64,000 bases of DNA from Escherichia phage vB_EcoM_CUA3 (PP410321); one strand, 5' to 3'. Shown: positions 2,437 to 36,525, counted from the stretch's first letter. Notes: a model not told the origin generated them from the sequence alone. Numbers and translations are program-made.

Positions 2437-2746
2437 TTTTAACTACCTCATGTTGAACATATTCTCTGGTAGAACCCAGTTCGGCCAGAATTCTTCTCAT
2501 AGAACCCATTGTACTTTTGTGCTCTCTGTGGCGATACATTATCTCTAAAACCTTTTCCTGGACAACAGGAGAGAGCGCCTGGTTATCTTTAATCTTTAAG
2601 GCAATAGATTTTACAGCCTTAAGATATTCTAGTCCCTTACCGCTTGTAATCACTACTCCTTCATCTTTACAGTTACGAATAGCAGTTTCCATAAAAGATA
2701 AAGCCAAGTTGTCAGTGTTCACTATACTGTTATCTTGCATAATCAT
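2423..2746 (-). CDS. hypothetical protein
   Basis: 107-aa ORF, ATG start with GAGGTGA SD; overlaps rIIA.1 start by 14 nt. Confidence 0.4.
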   Translation of the reverse strand: MIMQDNSIVNTDNLALSFMETAIRNCKDEGVVITSGKGLEYLKAVKSIALKIKDNQALSPVVQEKVLEIMYRHREHKSTMGSMRRILAELGSTREYVQHEVVKNDKL

Positions 2747-2788
2747 ATTCTCACCTCTNAGATAATCCTATCATAGTTTTGTTATGTT

Positions 2789-2818
2789 GTAAACCCCGAA
2801 AAGGGCCCGTAGGCCCTT
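2789..2818 (-). terminator. rho-independent terminator (minus strand)
   Basis: 7-bp GC-rich stem AAGGGCC/GGCCCTT with 4-nt loop, then U-rich TTTCGGGGTTT on the minus-sense RNA. Confidence 0.5.
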
Positions 2819-3024
2819 AATTANNNNNNNNNNNNNNNNNNNNNNNNNNNNNNNNNNNNNNNNNNNNNNNNNNNNNNNNNNNNNNNNNNNNNNNNNNNNN
2901 NNNNNNNNNNNNNNNNNNNNNNNNNNNNNNNCCAGAGATATCCAAATTCACCGGTGGCTAGCGTTATCCAGTACTTTCTCATAAAGTCTCCTNNTNTANG
3001 GCACTCATGTACCATACATATTTA

Positions 3025-14724: not shown

Positions 14725-15246
14725 TTAATAACCTCGGTCCTGACGTGCAAAGTTCTCGGCATTTTTCAGGTAATACAGCTTAAAGATTTCTTCAGCAGTC
14801 AGACCAAGACCCTGGAACATATTCAGAACAAAGTGCAGAATATCAATCATTTCGAATTTAATTTCGAGCTGGTCTTCAGGAGACANNNNNNNNNNNNNNN
14901 NNNNNNNNNNNNNNNNNNNNNNNNNNNNNNNNNNNNNNNNNNNNNNNNNTGCATCTTTCTCACCGTTGCTCATACCACCAAGAGATGTCAGAAGTTCACG
15001 GAATTCGTCATCAATATAATCTTTCTGGTTGCGAAGCCAGTCGACAACTTGACCTGCAGTAGCTAATTCATCCGGATTAGCATTAAACTCTGATTTTTCA
15101 GTAGCCAGACGAACCTGTAATGATTTCTGCATATCAAGCATAACCTGCAGAGGGTCTTTATCTTCGTGAATCAGAGCATTAAAATAAGCTTCTTCAGCTT
15201 TATCAGCACCAGCAATCAGTTGAGAACATTCATTAAAATGAGCCAT
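14725..15246 (-). CDS. 56: dCTP pyrophosphatase (dCTPase, MazG-like all-alpha NTP-PPase)
   Basis: about 173 aa from MAHFNE; EIKFEMIDILHF-type helix; position next to primase as in T4; part of the interior N-masked. Confidence 0.75.
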   Translation of the reverse strand: MAHFNECSQLIAGADKAEEAYFNALIHEDKDPLQVMLDMQKSLQVRLATEKSEFNANPDELATAGQVVDWLRNQKDYIDDEFRELLTSLGGMSNGEKDAXXXXXXXXXXXXXXXXXXXXXXSPEDQLEIKFEMIDILHFVLNMFQGLGLTAEEIFKLYYLKNAENFARQDRGY

Positions 15247-20186: not shown

Positions 20187-20500
20187 CTCTTAGATTTAAT
20201 TTTATCCAGTTCTTCTTGTATTTGCATTGTAACACATTTTTCTACATGAAGCGCTAGCTCTTCTTTTCGGTCTTCGGAAGGCGTTCCGAAATCAACCGAC
20301 ACTTTTCCATCTTTCTCAATAACAATATTCATCACATAAACGATGTGAGCAGTGCCATCAGGTAATGTAAGCATAATTTCCTGCTTAACAGTCCCCATTG
20401 ACTTACGGATTATATCTAACGATTTCTCATAATAGCGAGGGTCACTAGGACCCTCTTCAGTATCTTTAACAAAATTATCTAAATCAGATAAATCAGTCAT
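20171..20500 (-). CDS. 40: protein in gene 40 position (head vertex assembly chaperone-like)
   Basis: 109-aa ORF between uvsX and 41 as in T4; called by position and size only. Confidence 0.45.
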   Translation of the reverse strand: MTDLSDLDNFVKDTEEGPSDPRYYEKSLDIIRKSMGTVKQEIMLTLPDGTAHIVYVMNIVIEKDGKVSVDFGTPSEDRKEELALHVEKCVTMQIQEELDKIKSKRWWKW

Positions 20501-21665
20501 NNAAATTCATGTTTTCTAAATCGTTTTCGATATCAGCAGCGCTTTGAGTATCACCACCTAATTTAACTGCAACGTTCTTAGAGACACGAGAGTTGATAAG
20601 GTCATTCACTGCATCATCGACTTCTTTAATAGAATTAATTGCACCAAGCTTATACTTATTCTCGATTGCTTCACGGAACGGAGCGTGTTTAAACAGAGGT
20701 CCCCAGAACTCGACACAATCAGTAGCTTTAGCACGCCATGATTTTTCTTCTTGAACCATTTCACCCGTGGTTTCGTCAAGGAATGCACGATTATACCAGC
20801 CAGCTTTAGGTTTCACGACAAAACCGATATCTGTAGCCATTTCAAGCAGACCACTAAACGGGTCGATACCGCCTTCAAAGTTCACAGTAATTGGGAACGT
20901 TGATTTCTCTTTAACAGTACGAGATTTCTCTGCCTTCAGGGTGAAGTCATAACCAGTGAGCTCAGTACCATCTTTAACCTGACGTTTAGAGATAAAGAAC
21001 ACGGTAGAAGCAGAGTACAGAATACCAGTACCACCACCCATAATCTCTTTAGGATACATTCCACCAATTTCCATAGCCGTATGGTTAATTGCTACACAAG
21101 GAATATCCTTGATAGTCAGATAAGGCGTTACGATACGGAACAGAGATTTAAGAGACTTAGCACGAGTCATATCACCTACAACTTTCTCGTTCAAAGCATC
21201 TTCGGTTTCTTTCTTAGAAGCGGTGTTACCGATGGAGTCGATAAAGATAATAACCTTTTCGCCACGAGTAATTTCTTCTAATTGGTTGGTCATGTCAACC
21301 TTCAGTTGTTCAACTGACTGGATTGGCGTATGAACTACACGTTCCAGGTCAACACCCATTGAACGGAAATAAGATTCTGAAGCACCGAACTCAGAGTCAT
21401 AGAACAAGCAAATTGCGTCTGGATATTTCTTCATATATGCCGCAACCATAGTTAATCCAAACAACGTTTTAAAGTGTTTAGACGGCGCAGCAAAGATTGT
21501 CAAACCTGATTGTAAGCCTGCATTCAACGCACCACCCAATGCAATATTAAGCATAGGAATACGAGTAGGAACTTCGTCACGACCATTAAACAATTTAGAT
21601 TTGGTCAGGTCGGCAGTCATTTTAGAAGTAGAAGCTTTAATCAAACGGGATTTTAAATCGGACAT
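20493..21665 (-). CDS. uvsX: UvsX recombinase (RecA-like)
   Basis: 390-aa ORF; RecA-fold motifs; length and position as T4 UvsX. Confidence 0.9.
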   Translation of the reverse strand: MSDLKSRLIKASTSKMTADLTKSKLFNGRDEVPTRIPMLNIALGGALNAGLQSGLTIFAAPSKHFKTLFGLTMVAAYMKKYPDAICLFYDSEFGASESYFRSMGVDLERVVHTPIQSVEQLKVDMTNQLEEITRGEKVIIFIDSIGNTASKKETEDALNEKVVGDMTRAKSLKSLFRIVTPYLTIKDIPCVAINHTAMEIGGMYPKEIMGGGTGILYSASTVFFISKRQVKDGTELTGYDFTLKAEKSRTVKEKSTFPITVNFEGGIDPFSGLLEMATDIGFVVKPKAGWYNRAFLDETTGEMVQEEKSWRAKATDCVEFWGPLFKHAPFREAIENKYKLGAINSIKEVDDAVNDLINSRVSKNVAVKLGGDTQSAADIENDLENMNXXD

Positions 21666-22761
21666 TATATTTTTCCATAGGCACCATTATATTTTTCTCA
21701 CGTTTTAAGATAGGGTAATTATAACACTTCACAATTACAGCATTANNNNNNNNNNNNNNNNNNNNNNNNNNNNNNNNNNNNNNNNNNNNNNNNNNNNNNN
21801 NNNNNNNNNNNNNNNNNNNNNNNNNNNNNNNNNNNNNNNNNNNNNNNNNNNNNNNNNNNNNNNNNNNNNNNNNNACCACGTCCTCATAACTTGGCATTTC
21901 GTGCTCAGAATGGATATGGGCACCGAAATAAATGAATTCAGCCAGACCCGGATGGAATACTAAACCCGGGTTCTCATGATAAATGATATGTGGTCTTGAT
22001 TTCAGAATCTGATAATATTCAACCTTACTCGGTTTGAATTTAACAATCTCTACATCAGGACGATAGTCTTCACGTTTAAATGAATCGTTAGGGTCAGTGA
22101 TATAAAGACGAGCACCTTCAGCCGCAGCTTGGTCTACAACTCTTTCGAATTGATAACACTTATCCGAAATACGGAATGGATGGAAAATACCATCAATTTT
22201 AATAGGCGCTAGACCTTCAGAGTAACGCTCAATTACTACCGGATTAATTACCTTTTGATCTACAAAAATCTTATCAGAGGATGCACCTCGTGACACCAGG
22301 ACGTCTTTCTGACATTGGTTCAGGACCGTGGTATAAAGTGAACGTTCAACTGAAGCCACATCAATATCAATGAACTCGTCAATATAATAACGAGGAACTT
22401 CAGGGTCCATTGTGATATTAAAGTTGAATTGTACAGTCTGAGCACCATCATAACCTGTGATATCGGTTACCAGTCCTGAGCAATCATAGTATTCGATTAG
22501 CGAATCGACCACAAACTCGTTTTCAGACCAGAAATGTTTACGGGTTTCATAAGCATTTTCTTTATACCAAAGCGGCACAAAATTCAGTTCAGGAAATAAT
22601 TCAATGCATTCTTTGATATCGCTCGAATTTCTAGGATAAGCCAGATAATCACCTGGACGAGCACGATTTAAATGGAGTTGAAAATTACCGTCCTTAAGGA
22701 CGGCATATTCACCTGTTTCGTAACTACGCATACTGAAAATAGGAACGATAAACAGACTCAT
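21637..22761 (-). CDS. hypothetical protein in the beta-glucosyltransferase slot (candidate DNA sugar transferase); 3' end uncertain
   Basis: 374-aa track ORF between gene 42 and uvsX; no resemblance to T4 beta-gt as recalled; C-terminal part is N-masked and the ORF reads through a promoter-like region, so the true stop is probably upstream of 21700. Confidence 0.35.
   Translation of the reverse strand: MSLFIVPIFSMRSYETGEYAVLKDGNFQLHLNRARPGDYLAYPRNSSDIKECIELFPELNFVPLWYKENAYETRKHFWSENEFVVDSLIEYYDCSGLVTDITGYDGAQTVQFNFNITMDPEVPRYYIDEFIDIDVASVERSLYTTVLNQCQKDVLVSRGASSDKIFVDQKVINPVVIERYSEGLAPIKIDGIFHPFRISDKCYQFERVVDQAAAEGARLYITDPNDSFKREDYRPDVEIVKFKPSKVEYYQILKSRPHIIYHENPGLVFHPGLAEFIYFGAHIHSEHEMPSYEDVXXXXXXXXXXXXXXXXXXXXXXXXXXXXXXXXXXXXXXXXXXXXNAVIVKCYNYPILKREKNIMVPMEKYNVRFKIPFD
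21718..21745 (-). promoter_or_regulatory. possible middle promoter upstream of uvsX
   Basis: minus-sense GCTGTA, 12 nt, TGtTATAAT; CCCTATC follows; the -35 side abuts an N run. Confidence 0.3.
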
Positions 22762-23456
22762 TTCAGAAAACCTCGGACGTAGTCAAAATCACGTTCAAAC
22801 ACGTGTGCACTTACCATGGTATGAGAATATGTACCCAAACCAACACCACACTGTTCAGCAATAAAGGCCATCAGTTTACCTTGCAGATAAAAATCCAGCT
22901 GCATAACAACAGCACAGTTCTGTGAACGCATATGAGTGTGTGCATACAAACGACCATCACGAATATAATACGTTACTGAATCAGTGCATGGATATTCTAA
23001 GGATTCATCAGAATCAAGGAGGGCTTGGTCTTGTTCTTGGAGAATCTGGAATACAACTCTTCGGGAGTTAGGCTTTTCTTTAAGCTCTTTAAGTAGGGCT
23101 GGGAGTTGGGCCACAATTCGAGGTCCATAGAAAGTGTTGAAGTTTGCAGGCAATACGTCACTTTTCGGCTTATCAATGAACTTAGCAACATTAGGGTATT
23201 CCTTAAATGCTTCGGCAGCGTCAGTACCGCCAGAAATCATAAATTTCCAAAAGGATTCGGCATATTCGTAACTAATACGATTAATACGTGGGTCGGTGAA
23301 TTTATAGGTGCTTGCATCCAGTACTTCTACCGAAGCAGAACCAATTTCATAGCAACGTCCGATACGAGAATCAACTGCAAACTGTGGAGCTTCCAGGATT
23401 TCTTCGTTCATTTGTTTAAATGCGTTTTCAAAACTAACAGCGGTAATGTGTTTCAT
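22758..23456 (-). CDS. 42: deoxycytidylate 5-hydroxymethyltransferase (thymidylate-synthase fold)
   Basis: 232-aa ORF; catalytic-Cys context EYPCTDSVTYYIRD and MRSQNCAVVMQLDFY align with T4 gp42 FMCTNTVQYLIRD...MRSNDVVFGFRNDY, including the Asp equivalent to T4 Asp179 that marks cytosine rather than uracil specificity. Confidence 0.7.
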   Translation of the reverse strand: MKHITAVSFENAFKQMNEEILEAPQFAVDSRIGRCYEIGSASVEVLDASTYKFTDPRINRISYEYAESFWKFMISGGTDAAEAFKEYPNVAKFIDKPKSDVLPANFNTFYGPRIVAQLPALLKELKEKPNSRRVVFQILQEQDQALLDSDESLEYPCTDSVTYYIRDGRLYAHTHMRSQNCAVVMQLDFYLQGKLMAFIAEQCGVGLGTYSHTMVSAHVFERDFDYVRGFLK

Positions 23457-23989
23457 TTATTCACCTTATTTTCAATATATCCATTCAGACGTTTTAATTC
23501 TACCATATCAACATTAAGCAAATTATTATGGCCGTCGTGGTTTAAGATTTTAAACACGTTTTCAAAACATGTTTCGTATTGCCGGATAGTTAGGTTGAAC
23601 TCATCTTTGGTTAATTTAATAAGGTCGTCTTCAAAGTCTTCATCTAATGGATTACGAGTTAAAATAACCTCGATAACGTTAAATTCAGATTTAAACCCTT
23701 TCCAATCTTCCAGTTCTACATAAGGGTCCATTTCACCACGAAGGAATCCGGAGTAAACAATATTACTAGGGTATCCACGGTCTAAGATATAGACAAAATT
23801 AGGGTCTAAAAACTTATACAAGGTTTCAACCAAAGCCTTGTCATTATCAGTTCCTAATGAAATACATTTACCATTAATCTTTTTAGGAAAATCAATAAGA
23901 CGATATTTCTTATCAGATAAAAGGGTTTCGATTAAAGTAGACTTCCCGGAATTATCCGGGCCGTCTATAACAATGATTTTTGGATTCAT
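23453..23989 (-). CDS. P-loop nucleoside-monophosphate-kinase-like protein
   Basis: 178-aa ORF; Walker A GPDNSGKST; DRGYPSNIVYSG resembles the thymidylate-kinase DRY motif; no T4 gene at this position. Confidence 0.55.
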   Translation of the reverse strand: MNPKIIVIDGPDNSGKSTLIETLLSDKKYRLIDFPKKINGKCISLGTDNDKALVETLYKFLDPNFVYILDRGYPSNIVYSGFLRGEMDPYVELEDWKGFKSEFNVIEVILTRNPLDEDFEDDLIKLTKDEFNLTIRQYETCFENVFKILNHDGHNNLLNVDMVELKRLNGYIENKVNK

Positions 23990-24384
23990 GGATGATAGGC
24001 CTTATAACTATCAAGAGTTCCTTCACGAACCATTTCTTTAAAGTGGTCAGGACGGATTGCTCGGTCATCGATGATAAAAGTATAACTCGGCTTGTGTGTA
24101 AGCAAATTGTGATATTTCAATCCAATTTTTTCAAGGTTCTTAACCAATGCAGGAACTACTTCAACCAAGATTCGACCTGGGCCACATGAAGTCATACCAC
24201 GGGCAGTGAACAATGTAATCTCATGACCTTCATCGTACAGCTTATTAATCATGGACACCATTTCGGTGTCCGGTTTAAAGTTTTCATAATCACGGTCATG
24301 GTTCCAAATCGTGATTGTGTTATCGATGTCAAAGCACAANNNNNNNNNNNNNNNNNNNNNNNNNNNCATTAAATTTTCTTCCAT
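23986..24384 (-). CDS. HAD-superfamily phosphatase
   Basis: 132-aa ORF; HAD motif I LCFDIDNTIT; N-terminus partly N-masked. Confidence 0.55.
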   Translation of the reverse strand: MEENLMXXXXXXXXXLCFDIDNTITIWNHDRDYENFKPDTEMVSMINKLYDEGHEITLFTARGMTSCGPGRILVEVVPALVKNLEKIGLKYHNLLTHKPSYTFIIDDRAIRPDHFKEMVREGTLDSYKAYHP

Positions 24385-26042
24385 TGTTTGTGGAGTTCAG
24401 TAGAACCTGTAGGTTTATATTTTACACCAGTTTCCTGGTCAAGCAAAACCCACTTATCAGGGCAACGAGTAATAATTTGTGCCGTAATAGGGTCACGAAC
24501 TTCATCAACGAATTCACCTGTAATAAGCTTACGCTTACGAGGATGCCGCTTCAGCAGCACACTCAATTGATACAAACCGTTATAATAAGCGCCCAGAGCT
24601 TTCAGAGGATTATTCTTAAAGTAACCTGCCAGTGCCATCCAGATAACAGCAATCCAGAGCTTGTGCTTAAATGTGCACATAGGAATATCGTCTAAAGGCA
24701 TAACCTTTTCAATATCAACGAATACACGAGTTCCGTTACGAGTTAAGCCGCCCCATAGAGGGTCTGAGTTAAATTTGTCATAGCCATCGATAGAATAAAG
24801 CACCTTGGCTTCGTCATAAATCGCAGGGCCTTTAGAACTATTGCCGAAATAACCTCGTGGGTCGATGATTTTAATATCACCTTCGTCCGACAACATAATA
24901 TTGCTATAGTGCGGGTCGCCGTGAATAAGTTGGTATGGTTCTTTATGTTCGGACAGAATTTCTAAGGCATGACGTAGAAGTTTTTCAGGGTCGCCTACCT
25001 TGAAATCGTTAACATGGGTAATGCCCTGTGGAGCAAAGCCTTCAATCAATCCAGCAATAGAAGCATTACGAATCAGGACCTTATCCAATACTTCTTTCTT
25101 AACATCAGAATACCATTGCTCATCAGTCGGATTATCAATAGTTCCACCGAATGAACGTAATGCACTAATGACCTTATAAACCATGAGGACTTTAGTTTCT
25201 TTAGACATGAACCGGTAGGCATCTGCCATGGTACGACCAAAGATACGTTCCATTTTAATGAATTCGCCCGGAGCAAAGTCTACAATGCTCGGAACGAATT
25301 CAGAATCAATAGAATTATACCAATTGATTTCTTTAGATTGGATTTCTTTACCTAATTCGTTGGTTGGTACTTTAATAGCCAGATTCTCAGTGAATTCTAA
25401 TTTATTAAATTCACGGTTAATTTCAGATTCTTCATGAGCCTTGGCCAGTTTCAGTTTATCACCGACATCAACTACAAAGTCTAGTTTACGTTCGGTCAAA
25501 TAGACCATTGAATCCAGGTTATCAGCAAGGTCTTCACCGTAATTGGAACGGTCGAAACCTGTCCAATTAGCCACCTGATACAAACCAACTACGCCGCCAC
25601 CGGTACCAATTTCGCGCAAGTACGGTTCTTCAAATGTAAAACGACAATCGGTTCCATAGGTATAACAGTAGTCGTTACCCCATTCAACTTTATGGCCGAT
25701 AGGAATAATATCACACCAGTTAAACAGGACGTTATGCCCGATAATATCTTCAGCAATGCAATCGATAGCATGAGCTGAACCATTAGCAACATCAACGTTA
25801 CGAATAGTAAACTTAGGCTTATCGCCCGTAATCATGTTAATGGATTTAATATAGCCTTTAACGAGGTCGTTAAATTTGCTATGGATTACCAAAATGATTT
25901 CGTCGGATTGGTTACTGTACAAATCATACAAATGCTTTAATACCGTATGTTGTTTGTAGTTAACCAATACCTTAGGAATTTCGTTAGTAATTGGATACAA
26001 CCGTGAGCCAAGACCTGCGCCTAAAATAACAACCTTTTTCAT
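24369..26042 (-). CDS. bifunctional sugar-1-phosphate nucleotidyltransferase / sugar kinase (APH/choline-kinase fold)
   Basis: N-terminal KVVILGAGLGSRLYPIT...PKVLV is the G-x-G-x-R-L NTP-transferase signature; C-terminal LIHGDPHYSNIM...IKIIDPRG is the APH/ChoK catalytic HGD...N...D motif; start set at the internal ATG (MKKVVIL) with GAGGAA SD. Confidence 0.7.
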   Translation of the reverse strand: MKKVVILGAGLGSRLYPITNEIPKVLVNYKQHTVLKHLYDLYSNQSDEIILVIHSKFNDLVKGYIKSINMITGDKPKFTIRNVDVANGSAHAIDCIAEDIIGHNVLFNWCDIIPIGHKVEWGNDYCYTYGTDCRFTFEEPYLREIGTGGGVVGLYQVANWTGFDRSNYGEDLADNLDSMVYLTERKLDFVVDVGDKLKLAKAHEESEINREFNKLEFTENLAIKVPTNELGKEIQSKEINWYNSIDSEFVPSIVDFAPGEFIKMERIFGRTMADAYRFMSKETKVLMVYKVISALRSFGGTIDNPTDEQWYSDVKKEVLDKVLIRNASIAGLIEGFAPQGITHVNDFKVGDPEKLLRHALEILSEHKEPYQLIHGDPHYSNIMLSDEGDIKIIDPRGYFGNSSKGPAIYDEAKVLYSIDGYDKFNSDPLWGGLTRNGTRVFVDIEKVMPLDDIPMCTFKHKLWIAVIWMALAGYFKNNPLKALGAYYNGLYQLSVLLKRHPRKRKLITGEFVDEVRDPITAQIITRCPDKWVLLDQETGVKYKPTGSTELHKQWKKI

Positions 26043-26102
26043 TATCTGTTCCTCAAGTGAATGTAGGTACATTATACACTATTTTTAATAAATTTCTACT
26101 GC

Positions 26103-26603
26103 TTAAATCTTATCTTTACCGTATTCCATGCACTGTTCTACTGCAGCAGGCACTTTGGTCTTAAGCTTGTTGATTTGTTTCTTATAATCACGAGCCTTAT
26201 CGAAGCTCTCGGTTTCGAGCATTTCGTAATAACGGGCCTCATGGATAGAAACCTGTAAATTGATATGGTTTACACACATCGCATACAGCTTCTGCTTTTT
26301 GTACAAATCATCTTGGCGCTTCATTTCTGCCTGGTGTTTGGCTAGTACCGCTTCACGCTTAGACTCTTGCTCACGTTGGAATTCAATTTCTCGTTGTGCG
26401 TATTTGGCACAGTTATTACCGCACTGATTATTAGCCCGGGTATACACAAGTCCAGAACCTGCACGGAATTTCATTTCACCGTCATATTGTTTCTGCTCAG
26501 CAGCAATACGAGCTTTACCAACTTCATCCGCCGAAACTGCATCACCGTATTGGACTGCGCAACCTGAAAGGAGCATACTCATTGCGATAATTAACTTTTT
26601 CAT
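26103..26603 (-). CDS. putative lipoprotein
   Basis: 166-aa ORF; signal peptide MKKLIIAMSMLLSGC with lipobox. Confidence 0.5.
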   Translation of the reverse strand: MKKLIIAMSMLLSGCAVQYGDAVSADEVGKARIAAEQKQYDGEMKFRAGSGLVYTRANNQCGNNCAKYAQREIEFQREQESKREAVLAKHQAEMKRQDDLYKKQKLYAMCVNHINLQVSIHEARYYEMLETESFDKARDYKKQINKLKTKVPAAVEQCMEYGKDKI

Positions 26604-26610
26604 GATATCC

Positions 26611-26748
26611 TCAATTAAAACAGTTATACTTAATTTGTGCTATAAGAATAATCCATCCCATGATTAATGTTGGAATCATTGGTGGAATAGCCACTGCCCA
26701 ATAAACGGTAAAGGCAGTCATTATAAGAAATAAAATAATTATTTTCAT
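26611..26748 (-). CDS. small hydrophobic peptide (imm.1-like position)
   Basis: 45-aa ORF below the track cutoff, overlapping the imm stop. Confidence 0.3.
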   Translation of the reverse strand: MKIIILFLIMTAFTVYWAVAIPPMIPTLIMGWIILIAQIKYNCFN

Positions 26749-26981
26749 TGTTTAACAATAATGATTTGTGCGTTTGATTTACGTTCAGCGGCGATAGCCC
26801 AGATTAAAGCCACTACCCAACCAATCATTGTCCACCCTAACAAGAGATTAAGGAAGAAGATTCCGACATTACTACGGGTGCCTCGCAGAAGAGCTAAAAT
26901 CCATGGTAAGAAGTAAGCGACGAACATCATAACCAGAGAACCGAATCCTAAAACACCAGCACTAACGATTAAAGCTTCCAT
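26745..26981 (-). CDS. imm: superinfection immunity membrane protein
   Basis: 78-aa ORF with two predicted TM helices; position between 43 and 42 as T4 imm. Confidence 0.6.
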   Translation of the reverse strand: MEALIVSAGVLGFGSLVMMFVAYFLPWILALLRGTRSNVGIFFLNLLLGWTMIGWVVALIWAIAAERKSNAQIIIVKQ

Positions 26982-36347: not shown

Positions 36348-36525
36348 AANNNNNNNNNNNNNNNNNNNNNNNNNNNNNNNNNNNNNNNNNNNNNNNNNNN
36401 NNNNNNNNNNNNNNNNNNNNNNNNNNNNNNNNNNNNNNNNNNNNNNNNNNNNNNNNNNNNNNNNNNNNNNNNNNNNNNNNNNNNNNNNNNNNNNNNNNNN
36501 NNNNNNNNNNNNNNNNNNNNNNNNN

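Follow-up and report, generated by a model that had tools for sequence, protein, structure and literature searches.

Which base replaces cytosine in the DNA of Escherichia phage vB_EcoM_CUA3 (PP410321), and which sugar does it carry? The question is raised by a gene cluster on the minus strand of the 64,000-nucleotide (nt) stretch of this phage that we analyzed (the window), between uvsX (20493-21665) on one side and imm (26745-26981) and gene 43 for DNA polymerase (from 27044) on the other. An earlier interpretation, made from this sequence alone (the sequence-only reading), had described a hydroxymethylcytosine (hmC) locus with a sugar-nucleotide module beside it. It appears instead that the block at 21868-26042 encodes, in a reduced version of five genes, the Straboviridae pathway for arabinosyl-5-hydroxycytosine DNA as carried by Dhakaviruses, a reading to which we give a probability of roughly 85%. 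We assign the cluster to the RB69-type system because of the homology and synteny of all five genes, the D169N, N177D, L143E and Cys residues of its thymidylate synthase (ThyA) homologue, and the PDB and domain matches of its products.

The system is already known and is not new. Publications of 2025-2026 (Mahler, He, Lee) describe how it works, the enzymes involved and that Dhakaviruses carry it; those of Mahler and of He are cited here as relayed by PMC13326640 and PMC13390438. In RB69-type DNA, arabinose is joined by an ether bond to C5 of 5-hydroxycytosine, a structure revised by nuclear magnetic resonance and mass spectrometry (PMC13326640; PMC13390438), and homologous clusters give arabinosylated DNA in RB69, DLP3, HY126, Serratia phages and Thanatos (PMC13326640). 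Lee et al. (PMC13326640) list the Dhakaviruses among the genera with a syntenic cytosine-arabinosylation cluster and group the Marfaviruses likewise. JS98 had been flagged in 2010 as having homologues of genes 42 and 56 and no glucosyltransferase (PMC2993671).

Part of the sequence-only reading holds up well. The module probably does make an activated nucleoside diphosphate (NDP) sugar for DNA decoration, the sugar being other than glucose derived from UDP-glucose; the slot of the T4 beta-glucosyltransferase (beta-gt) is indeed occupied by a gene that is not T4's, and RB69 was the correct comparison. That reading had considered the sequence unable to decide whether this is the RB69 system. Homologues of five RB69 proteins (gp46:47, gp48, gp45, gp51 and gp52:53) in the same uvsX-gene 43 interval decide it; tblastn against JS10 gave the same five.

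The five genes and their products

The window is colinear with positions 1-64000 of the Dhakavirus JS10 (NC_012741), with zero indels and 94.8% identity at positions other than N. It contains 6250 N in about 90 runs and has the properties of a consensus mapped to the coordinates of JS10. Because there is no indel between the two, the JS10 annotation is directly transferable to the window; the lengths of open reading frames (ORFs) that cross N runs are unreliable. The cluster genes differ from those of JS10 mostly at third codon positions (80 of 90 nt differences in the fusion gene described below, with 4 amino-acid changes; 25 of 26 in the ThyA homologue, with 1 amino-acid change; 32 of 38 in the transferase gene), and this excess indicates that they are functional and under purifying selection. 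All five ORFs have the same orientation and neighbouring ends overlap by 4-16 nt, as expected of an operon. Apart from the transferase gene, each lies exactly where the sequence-only reading had placed it (Table 1), and the motifs quoted from it, GPDNSGKST, FDIDNT, GAGLGSRLYPIT..PKVLV and HGDPHYSN..IDPRG, were recovered in our translations. The profile and structure searches that had been proposed for these ORFs returned NTP_transferase and APH domains for the fusion, PDB 9iqw for the HAD protein, phrog_761 for the kinase and a GT-B fold for the ORF in the beta-gt slot. None of the five proteins scored above a curated NCBIfam cutoff.

The ThyA homologue, in which the Pfam domain Thymidylat_synt is found, had been taken for a deoxycytidine monophosphate (dCMP) hydroxymethylase. 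It shares 80% identity with RB69 gp48 (tblastn) compared to 25% with T4 gp42, the dCMP hydroxymethylase of the T4 system, and it matches PDB entries 9iqu, 9iqc and 9ir2 at E ~1e-126 (9iqu, 1.7e-126) compared to E 1e-5 for T4 gp42 (1b49). The three entries stand in a consecutive accession run with an entry labelled phage HY126. Alignment to E. coli ThyA shows that the catalytic Cys is retained (YPC) and that L143 is replaced by E, N177 by D and D169 by N. The Asp at the N177 position, which specifies cytosine, had been noted before and is present in the alignment; the D169 position, which is Asn in the window (RSQN) and Asp in T4 gp42 (RSND), speaks against a hydroxymethylase. D169N is the residue that marks 5-hydroxy-dCMP synthases, as validated on nine further homologues (PMC13326640), and both RB69 gp48 and DLP3 gp80 make 5-hydroxy-dCMP according to in vivo incorporation, 18O2 labelling and bound flavin (Lee et al., NAR 2026, PMC13326640). 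Judged by identity and by these residues (Cys, Asp at N177, an acidic residue at L143 and Asn at D169, the combination found in the synthases of arabinosyl-5-hydroxycytosine clusters), the gene-42-like protein is a 5-hydroxy-dCMP synthase and no dCMP hydroxymethylase.

The beta-gt slot had been said to hold an ORF of 374 amino acids (aa) at 21637-22761, unrelated to glucosyltransferases. This length is a masking artefact, as a run of 129 N at 21746-21874 lies inside the ORF and the ORF finder translated through it. In JS10 the gene occupies 21868-22761 and encodes 297 aa, the best database homologue is also 297 aa long (98% identity), and the N run masks the last two codons and the stop in the window. 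Nor is the protein unrelated in fold: its predicted model (predicted local distance difference test, pLDDT, 94.4) is that of a GT-B glycosyltransferase, with two Rossmann-like domains that superpose on GT4 enzymes. No sequence similarity to T4 alpha-glucosyltransferase (alpha-gt) or beta-gt was detectable, and the glucosyltransferases of the T4 system thus have no sequence counterpart here. The protein is 65-70% identical to RB69 gp47 plus gp46 (tblastn; 67% in a pairwise comparison of six phages), which are one gene split through a sequencing error. An arabinosyltransferase 1 of the GT-B family of gp46:47 and DLP3 gp79 is therefore found beside the synthase, as in the known clusters. The GT-B enzyme next to the synthase has been proposed to add the first, alpha-linked arabinose, with other transferases adding the second and third (PMC13326640).

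Such other transferases, which are a variable feature of the family, were not detected. A profile search for a second member of the transferase 1 family found one copy only, none of the larger hypothetical ORFs has a glycosyltransferase Pfam domain, and RB69 gp3, the second transferase, has no homologue in either the window or the complete genome of JS10 (tblastn). No additional enzyme of the kind used for di- and tri-arabinosylation elsewhere (RB69 gp3, DLP3 gp76/77) was thus found. Since only one transferase is present, we predict that the product is mono-arabinosyl-5-hydroxycytosine. The slot that holds the second arabinosyltransferase in RB69 (rIIA.1 to gene 39) corresponds to window positions 2437-3024, partly N (2824-2931), and that of T4 alpha-gt (after 47.1) to 36350-36525, N-masked in part; the corresponding JS10 sequences are short and either intergenic or occupied by small ORFs. 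An insertion may lie within the masked sequence of 2824-2931 or 36350-36525.

The fusion gene encodes a protein with the Pfam domains NTP_transferase (residues 13-110) and APH (residues 356-427). It matches phrog_4098 (E 4e-268) and aligns over its full length with RB69 gp53 (44% identity) and gp52 (41%; tblastn), which together are one gene. Its translation carries the nucleotidyltransferase motif GAGLGSRLYPIT..PKVLV in a domain that resembles MurU/GlmU-type enzymes, as well as the kinase motifs HGDPHYSN..IDPRG, and the catalytic motifs GAGLxxRLxPIT, PKVLVNYK, NWCD, HGDPxxSN and IDPRGYFG are invariant relative to Marfa, Thanatos, Berthold and CBH8. The protein corresponds in size and domains to the bifunctional enzyme of about 560 aa of the known clusters (AfhE, gp52:53). 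A mechanical ORF list begins it at ATG 26072 (567 aa), which overlaps a TATAAT box, whereas ATG 26042 is preceded by the Shine-Dalgarno sequence GAGGAA and is where the RB69 alignment begins. ATG 26042 is likely the true start, giving a product of 557 aa.

Adjoining the fusion gene with a 16-nt overlap is the gene for a small HAD phosphatase, as for AfhF and gp51. The protein is 62-63% identical to RB69 gp51, has FDIDNT as its DxDxT motif and matches PDB 9iqw (E 5e-51) and 1xpj (E 3e-11); a match to the capsule biosynthesis phosphatase family TIGR01689 is below cutoff, and an N run at 24340-24366 masks 9 N-terminal codons. The remaining gene encodes a P-loop protein (GPDNSGKST) that is 38% identical to RB69 gp45 (tblastn, E 1e-30), matches phrog_761 'thymidylate kinase' (E 1e-38) and weakly matches YorR and thymidylate kinase in the PDB. 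It is the counterpart of the thymidylate-kinase-like enzyme of the known clusters (gp45, DLP3 gp78), a homologue of which is termed merely "nucleotide kinase" in the literature. The sequence-only reading had combined the P-loop kinase, the phosphatase and the nucleotidyltransferase into a route to an NDP-sugar. The NDP-sugar stands, but the role of sugar kinase falls to the APH-like C-domain of the fusion and not to the thymidylate-kinase-like P-loop protein.

The annotation of the window is corrected to a 5-hydroxy-dCMP synthase, a GT-B transferase of 297 aa and a fusion start at 26042 (Table 1).

Table 1. Features of the cluster and associated elements in the window
Feature	Position	Strand	Basis or remark
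DNA arabinosyltransferase 1, GT-B fold, RB69 gp46:47 homologue	21868..22761	-	visible part 21875-22761; end coordinate from JS10
5-hydroxy-dCMP synthase, flavin/O2-dependent, thymidylate synthase superfamily	22758..23456	-	homology to RB69 gp48
Thymidylate-kinase-like P-loop nucleotide kinase, RB69 gp45 homologue	23453..23989	-	38% identity, phrog_761
HAD-type phosphatase, AfhF / RB69 gp51 homologue, predicted arabinose-1,5-bisphosphate 5-phosphatase	23986..24384	-	identity, PDB matches, FDIDNT
Bifunctional nucleotidyltransferase and APH/choline-kinase-like sugar kinase, AfhE / RB69 gp52:53 homologue	24369..26042	-	Pfam, homology
Sigma-70-like promoter match TAGAAA-16-TATAAT, directly upstream of fusion gene	26071..26098	-	consensus scan, 10/12 matches
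gp56 dCTPase/dUTPase, accessory, outside cluster	14725..15246	-	JS10 gene 56 at same coordinates; Pfam dUTPase_2 E 9e-7 (partly masked translation)

The promoter match is only a hint of a possible early promoter of the five-gene block, as the scan of the region found 19 sites compared to 16 +/- 4 expected, which is not above chance. Two further ORFs lie between the cluster and imm, both on the minus strand. One, at 26103-26603, encodes a lipoprotein-like protein of 166 aa with the signal MKKLIIAMSMLLSGC; it matches phrog_1754 (function unknown), belongs to no Pfam or NCBIfam family and has no counterpart in the RB69 interval. The other, at 26611-26721, is a small hydrophobic membrane ORF of 36 codons with 53% identity to RB69 gp54 ('42-imm intercistronic region'), so that a gp54-like small ORF adjoins the cluster in both RB69 and the window phage.

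Proposed pathway and missing genes

Read by homology, the base branch of the pathway would begin with gp56, which would supply dCMP and, by removing dCTP, let the modified base take the place of cytosine. The ThyA homologue would hydroxylate dCMP at C5 with flavin and O2 to give 5-hydroxy-dCMP, an activity shown for the 80%-identical RB69 gp48 and for the HY126 enzyme. A T4-type deoxynucleoside monophosphate (dNMP) kinase, gp1, possibly with the thymidylate-kinase-like protein of the cluster, and the host NDP kinase would raise the product to the triphosphate, and the polymerase would incorporate 5-hydroxy-dCTP in place of dC. Gene 1 (dNMP kinase), alc, denA and denB are annotated in JS10 outside the window region.

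The steps of the sugar branch were assigned to the window genes by homology to AfhE and AfhF. D-arabinose-5-phosphate would be drawn from the host Kdo pathway (KdsD/GutQ), phosphorylated at C1 by the APH-like C-domain of the fusion and relieved of its 5-phosphate by the HAD phosphatase, and the N-domain of the fusion would form UDP-arabinofuranose from arabinofuranose-1-phosphate and UTP. The GT-B enzyme in the beta-gt slot would then transfer arabinofuranose to the 5-OH. In HY126, C1 phosphorylation and UDP-arabinofuranose formation were shown for AfhE and removal of the 5-phosphate for AfhF (He et al., Nat Chem Biol 2026, as relayed by PMC13326640).

The sequence-only reading had supposed a phage-encoded donor pathway. 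However, RB69 gp55 (an arabinose-5-phosphate isomerase with a SIS domain), gp50 (Peptidase_U32-like) and gp49 have no homologue in the window or in the whole reassembled JS10 genome (tblastn; E<3 for the isomerase), and a phage-encoded isomerase of the gp55 or DLP3 gp83 type is thus missing from the scheme. Because of this absence, we infer that arabinose-5-phosphate is supplied by the host. E. coli and Klebsiella make it through KdsD/GutQ in the Kdo pathway. Its production by these enzymes is also cited by Thomas et al. (PMC6024577). In the phage collection the fusion has 367 records, the kinase 343, spread over hosts as the fusion is, and the isomerase 276; the deficit lies mostly in Escherichia (Dhakavirus) and Klebsiella (Marfavirus) phages. 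No isomerase was found in the Marfa and Thanatos loci examined. Given 276 records compared to 367 and these two loci, we treat the isomerase as an accessory of the system and not as a defining feature.

The U32-like protein is a separate case. It is 79-89% identical among RB69 (gp50, L002 4493-5662), Thanatos and Marfa (L009 10428-11561; L010 7784-8944) and is more conserved than the 5-hydroxy-dCMP synthase itself, yet it is missing from JS10 and the window and from the locus of Acinetobacter phage Berthold. RlhA and TrhP, two members of the U32 family, are required for C and U in rRNA and tRNA to be hydroxylated at position 5. By analogy, the U32-like protein might assist the hydroxylation, for example without O2.

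The genus therefore carries the smallest version of the cluster, which comprises five genes with a single transferase and lacks both the isomerase and the U32-like gene, and this leads to a testable prediction of mono-arabinosylation and of dependence on host KdsD/GutQ. Phage DNA with arabinosyl-5-hydroxycytosine is protected against restriction and CRISPR nucleases and becomes a target of type IV and glycosylase defenses; judging from RB69, DLP3 and the Serratia phages, the modification should protect the DNA of this phage from the same nucleases. As Dhakaviruses are candidates for phage therapy, the chemistry of their DNA bears on host range, sequencing and engineering.

Other sugars, bases and targets

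Besides the corrected annotation and the recognition of the smallest version of the cluster, this analysis adds to the published work the deep divergence of the fusion-HAD-kinase block compared to the synthase-transferase block. The synthase and transferase follow phage relatedness (80% and 67% identity between the window and RB69; 70-72% and 46-48% between the Shewanella or Acinetobacter versions and RB69; pairwise among six phages). In contrast, the fusion and kinase of the window and Marfa form an outgroup, with 42-46% and 38-44% identity, respectively, to the RB69, Serratia, Shewanella and Acinetobacter versions, which among themselves share 53-72% (fusion) and 39-68% (kinase). The HAD phosphatase, located between the two, shows the pattern only at the borderline. 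These comparisons make the contiguous block appear as a deeply diverged allele or as the result of an old exchange of modules, and fast evolution is also suggested. The divergence goes together with a missing isomerase and a relocated kinase, a single lineage event that proves nothing about function. As to whether the kinase serves the nucleotide or the sugar branch, kinase and fusion co-occur in the same phage groups, and a tblastn search with the kinase falls short of the hexose-type Rhizobium phages; their co-divergence rests on one lineage, and linkage in one recombination block accounts for it equally well.

Only because of this divergence is a different sugar conceivable. The donor module of Dhakaviruses and Marfaviruses could activate a sugar other than D-arabinofuranose, or start from a different host sugar phosphate, with 5-hydroxycytosine as the base. 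Besides the outgroup position of the fusion and kinase, it would fit such a change that the clade of the window and Marfa is without a phage arabinose-5-phosphate isomerase and that in Rhizobium phage RL38J1 hexoses are attached to 5-hydroxycytosine (PMC13326640). The Dhakavirus and Marfavirus phages would then carry a not-yet-described glycosyl-5-hydroxycytosine. We consider this unlikely. The transferase is 67% identical to that of RB69, whereas Thanatos and the Acinetobacter phages, which are proven arabinosylators, have transferases at 46-52%; identity for the HAD phosphatase is 63%, and the catalytic motifs in both fusion domains are invariant. The isomerase is dispensable in hosts that make arabinose-5-phosphate themselves, and Lee et al. 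place both genera with the arabinosylators.

A base of the hmC type, made by a diverged gp42 and decorated on its hydroxymethyl group with arabinose or another sugar, is very unlikely. The cytosine-specifying Asp and the acidic L143 position are as in hmC synthases, database records name the gene dCMP hydroxymethylase, and Thomas et al. 2018 (PMC6024577) reported arabinosyl-hmC for RB69. That report has since been called erroneous (PMC13390438; also PMC13326640): the RB69 structure was revised to ether-linked arabinosyl-5-hydroxycytosine, and gp48 makes 5-hydroxy-dCMP with incorporation of 18O2 (PMC13326640). The window enzyme sides with gp48 in both its identity and its Asn at D169.

Least probable of all is a non-DNA target such as envelope or capsule remodelling, with bare 5-hydroxycytosine in the DNA, since the resemblance of the HAD protein to capsule-biosynthesis phosphatases (TIGR01689), the MurU/GlmU-like nucleotidyltransferase and the name 'capsule biosynthesis protein' among database records are set against sugar genes that overlap the 5-hydroxy-dCMP synthase and GT-B transferase genes in one block, co-occur with them in ~340-370 phage genomes and have homologues in clusters that arabinosylate DNA, and against a transferase kept under purifying selection.

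Several points count against the arabinosyl-5-hydroxycytosine assignment itself. The literature searched contained no chemical data on JS98/JS10-type DNA, and the modification is ascribed to the genus from homology. The fusion and kinase are just 38-46% identical to every experimentally studied version, and the phage is without the isomerase found in RB69, DLP3-like and Serratia phages. Because the window is a JS10-coordinate consensus with its 6250 N, genes inserted relative to JS10 could be hidden, and because the transferase family is invisible to Pfam, there may be a second transferase of an unrecognised family. Finally, Lee et al. (PMC13326640) could not demonstrate the first arabosyl transfer in vitro and left undecided whether its substrate is DNA or the mononucleotide.

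Comparison with known systems

The best-studied relatives of the cluster are those of the Mosigviruses RB69 and HY126 (gp45-gp55 plus gp3; Afh proteins). They lie in the same uvsX-gene 43 interval as the window cluster and share with it five protein families, the D169N signature and a gp54-like small ORF. RB69 differs in having gp55, gp50, gp49 and gp3, which the window and JS10 lack, and in the location of the kinase, which is next to uvsX in RB69 and between the HAD and synthase genes in the window. RB69 DNA is both mono- and di-arabinosylated, whereas the window phage has only one transferase.

In organisation, Klebsiella phage Marfa is closest, with the order pol, fusion, HAD, kinase, ..., synthase, transferase, uvsX and identities to the window of 81% (fusion), 85% (kinase), 85% (HAD), 87% (synthase) and 68% (transferase). 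Marfa likewise has no isomerase in the locus, but it retains a U32-like gene (89% identity to RB69 gp50) between kinase and synthase. The Shewanella phage Thanatos (TH1_060-065) also resembles the window in having a single arabinosyltransferase by the synthase, and the 13.7 kb examined of its locus hold no isomerase. With its one arabinosyltransferase it has been reported to be mono-arabinosylated (PMC13326640), as predicted for the window phage. It differs in the presence of a U32-like protein and in its RB69-type order (kinase after transferase), and its proteins are 41-72% identical to those of the window.

The T4 glucosyl-hmC system (gp42, alpha-gt, beta-gt, gp56, gp1) follows the same general plan: dCMP is modified before replication by a ThyA-family enzyme, a dCTPase excludes dCTP, a GT-B enzyme uses a UDP-sugar, and a transferase gene lies in the same slot beside the ThyA homologue. 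In T4 the slot lies between gene 42 and uvsX and holds beta-gt/segA, with nothing between gene 42 and imm. The chemistry is different. T4 hydroxymethylates with methylene-tetrahydrofolate, while the window system would hydroxylate with flavin and O2, and, unlike in T4, the sugar would be linked through an ether oxygen directly on C5. The donor in T4 is host UDP-glucose, whereas the UDP-arabinofuranose of the window system must come from phage enzymes. Compared with both systems at the level of genes, the cluster has all the testable defining features of arabinosyl-5-hydroxycytosine DNA and fails those of T4 glucosyl-hmC.

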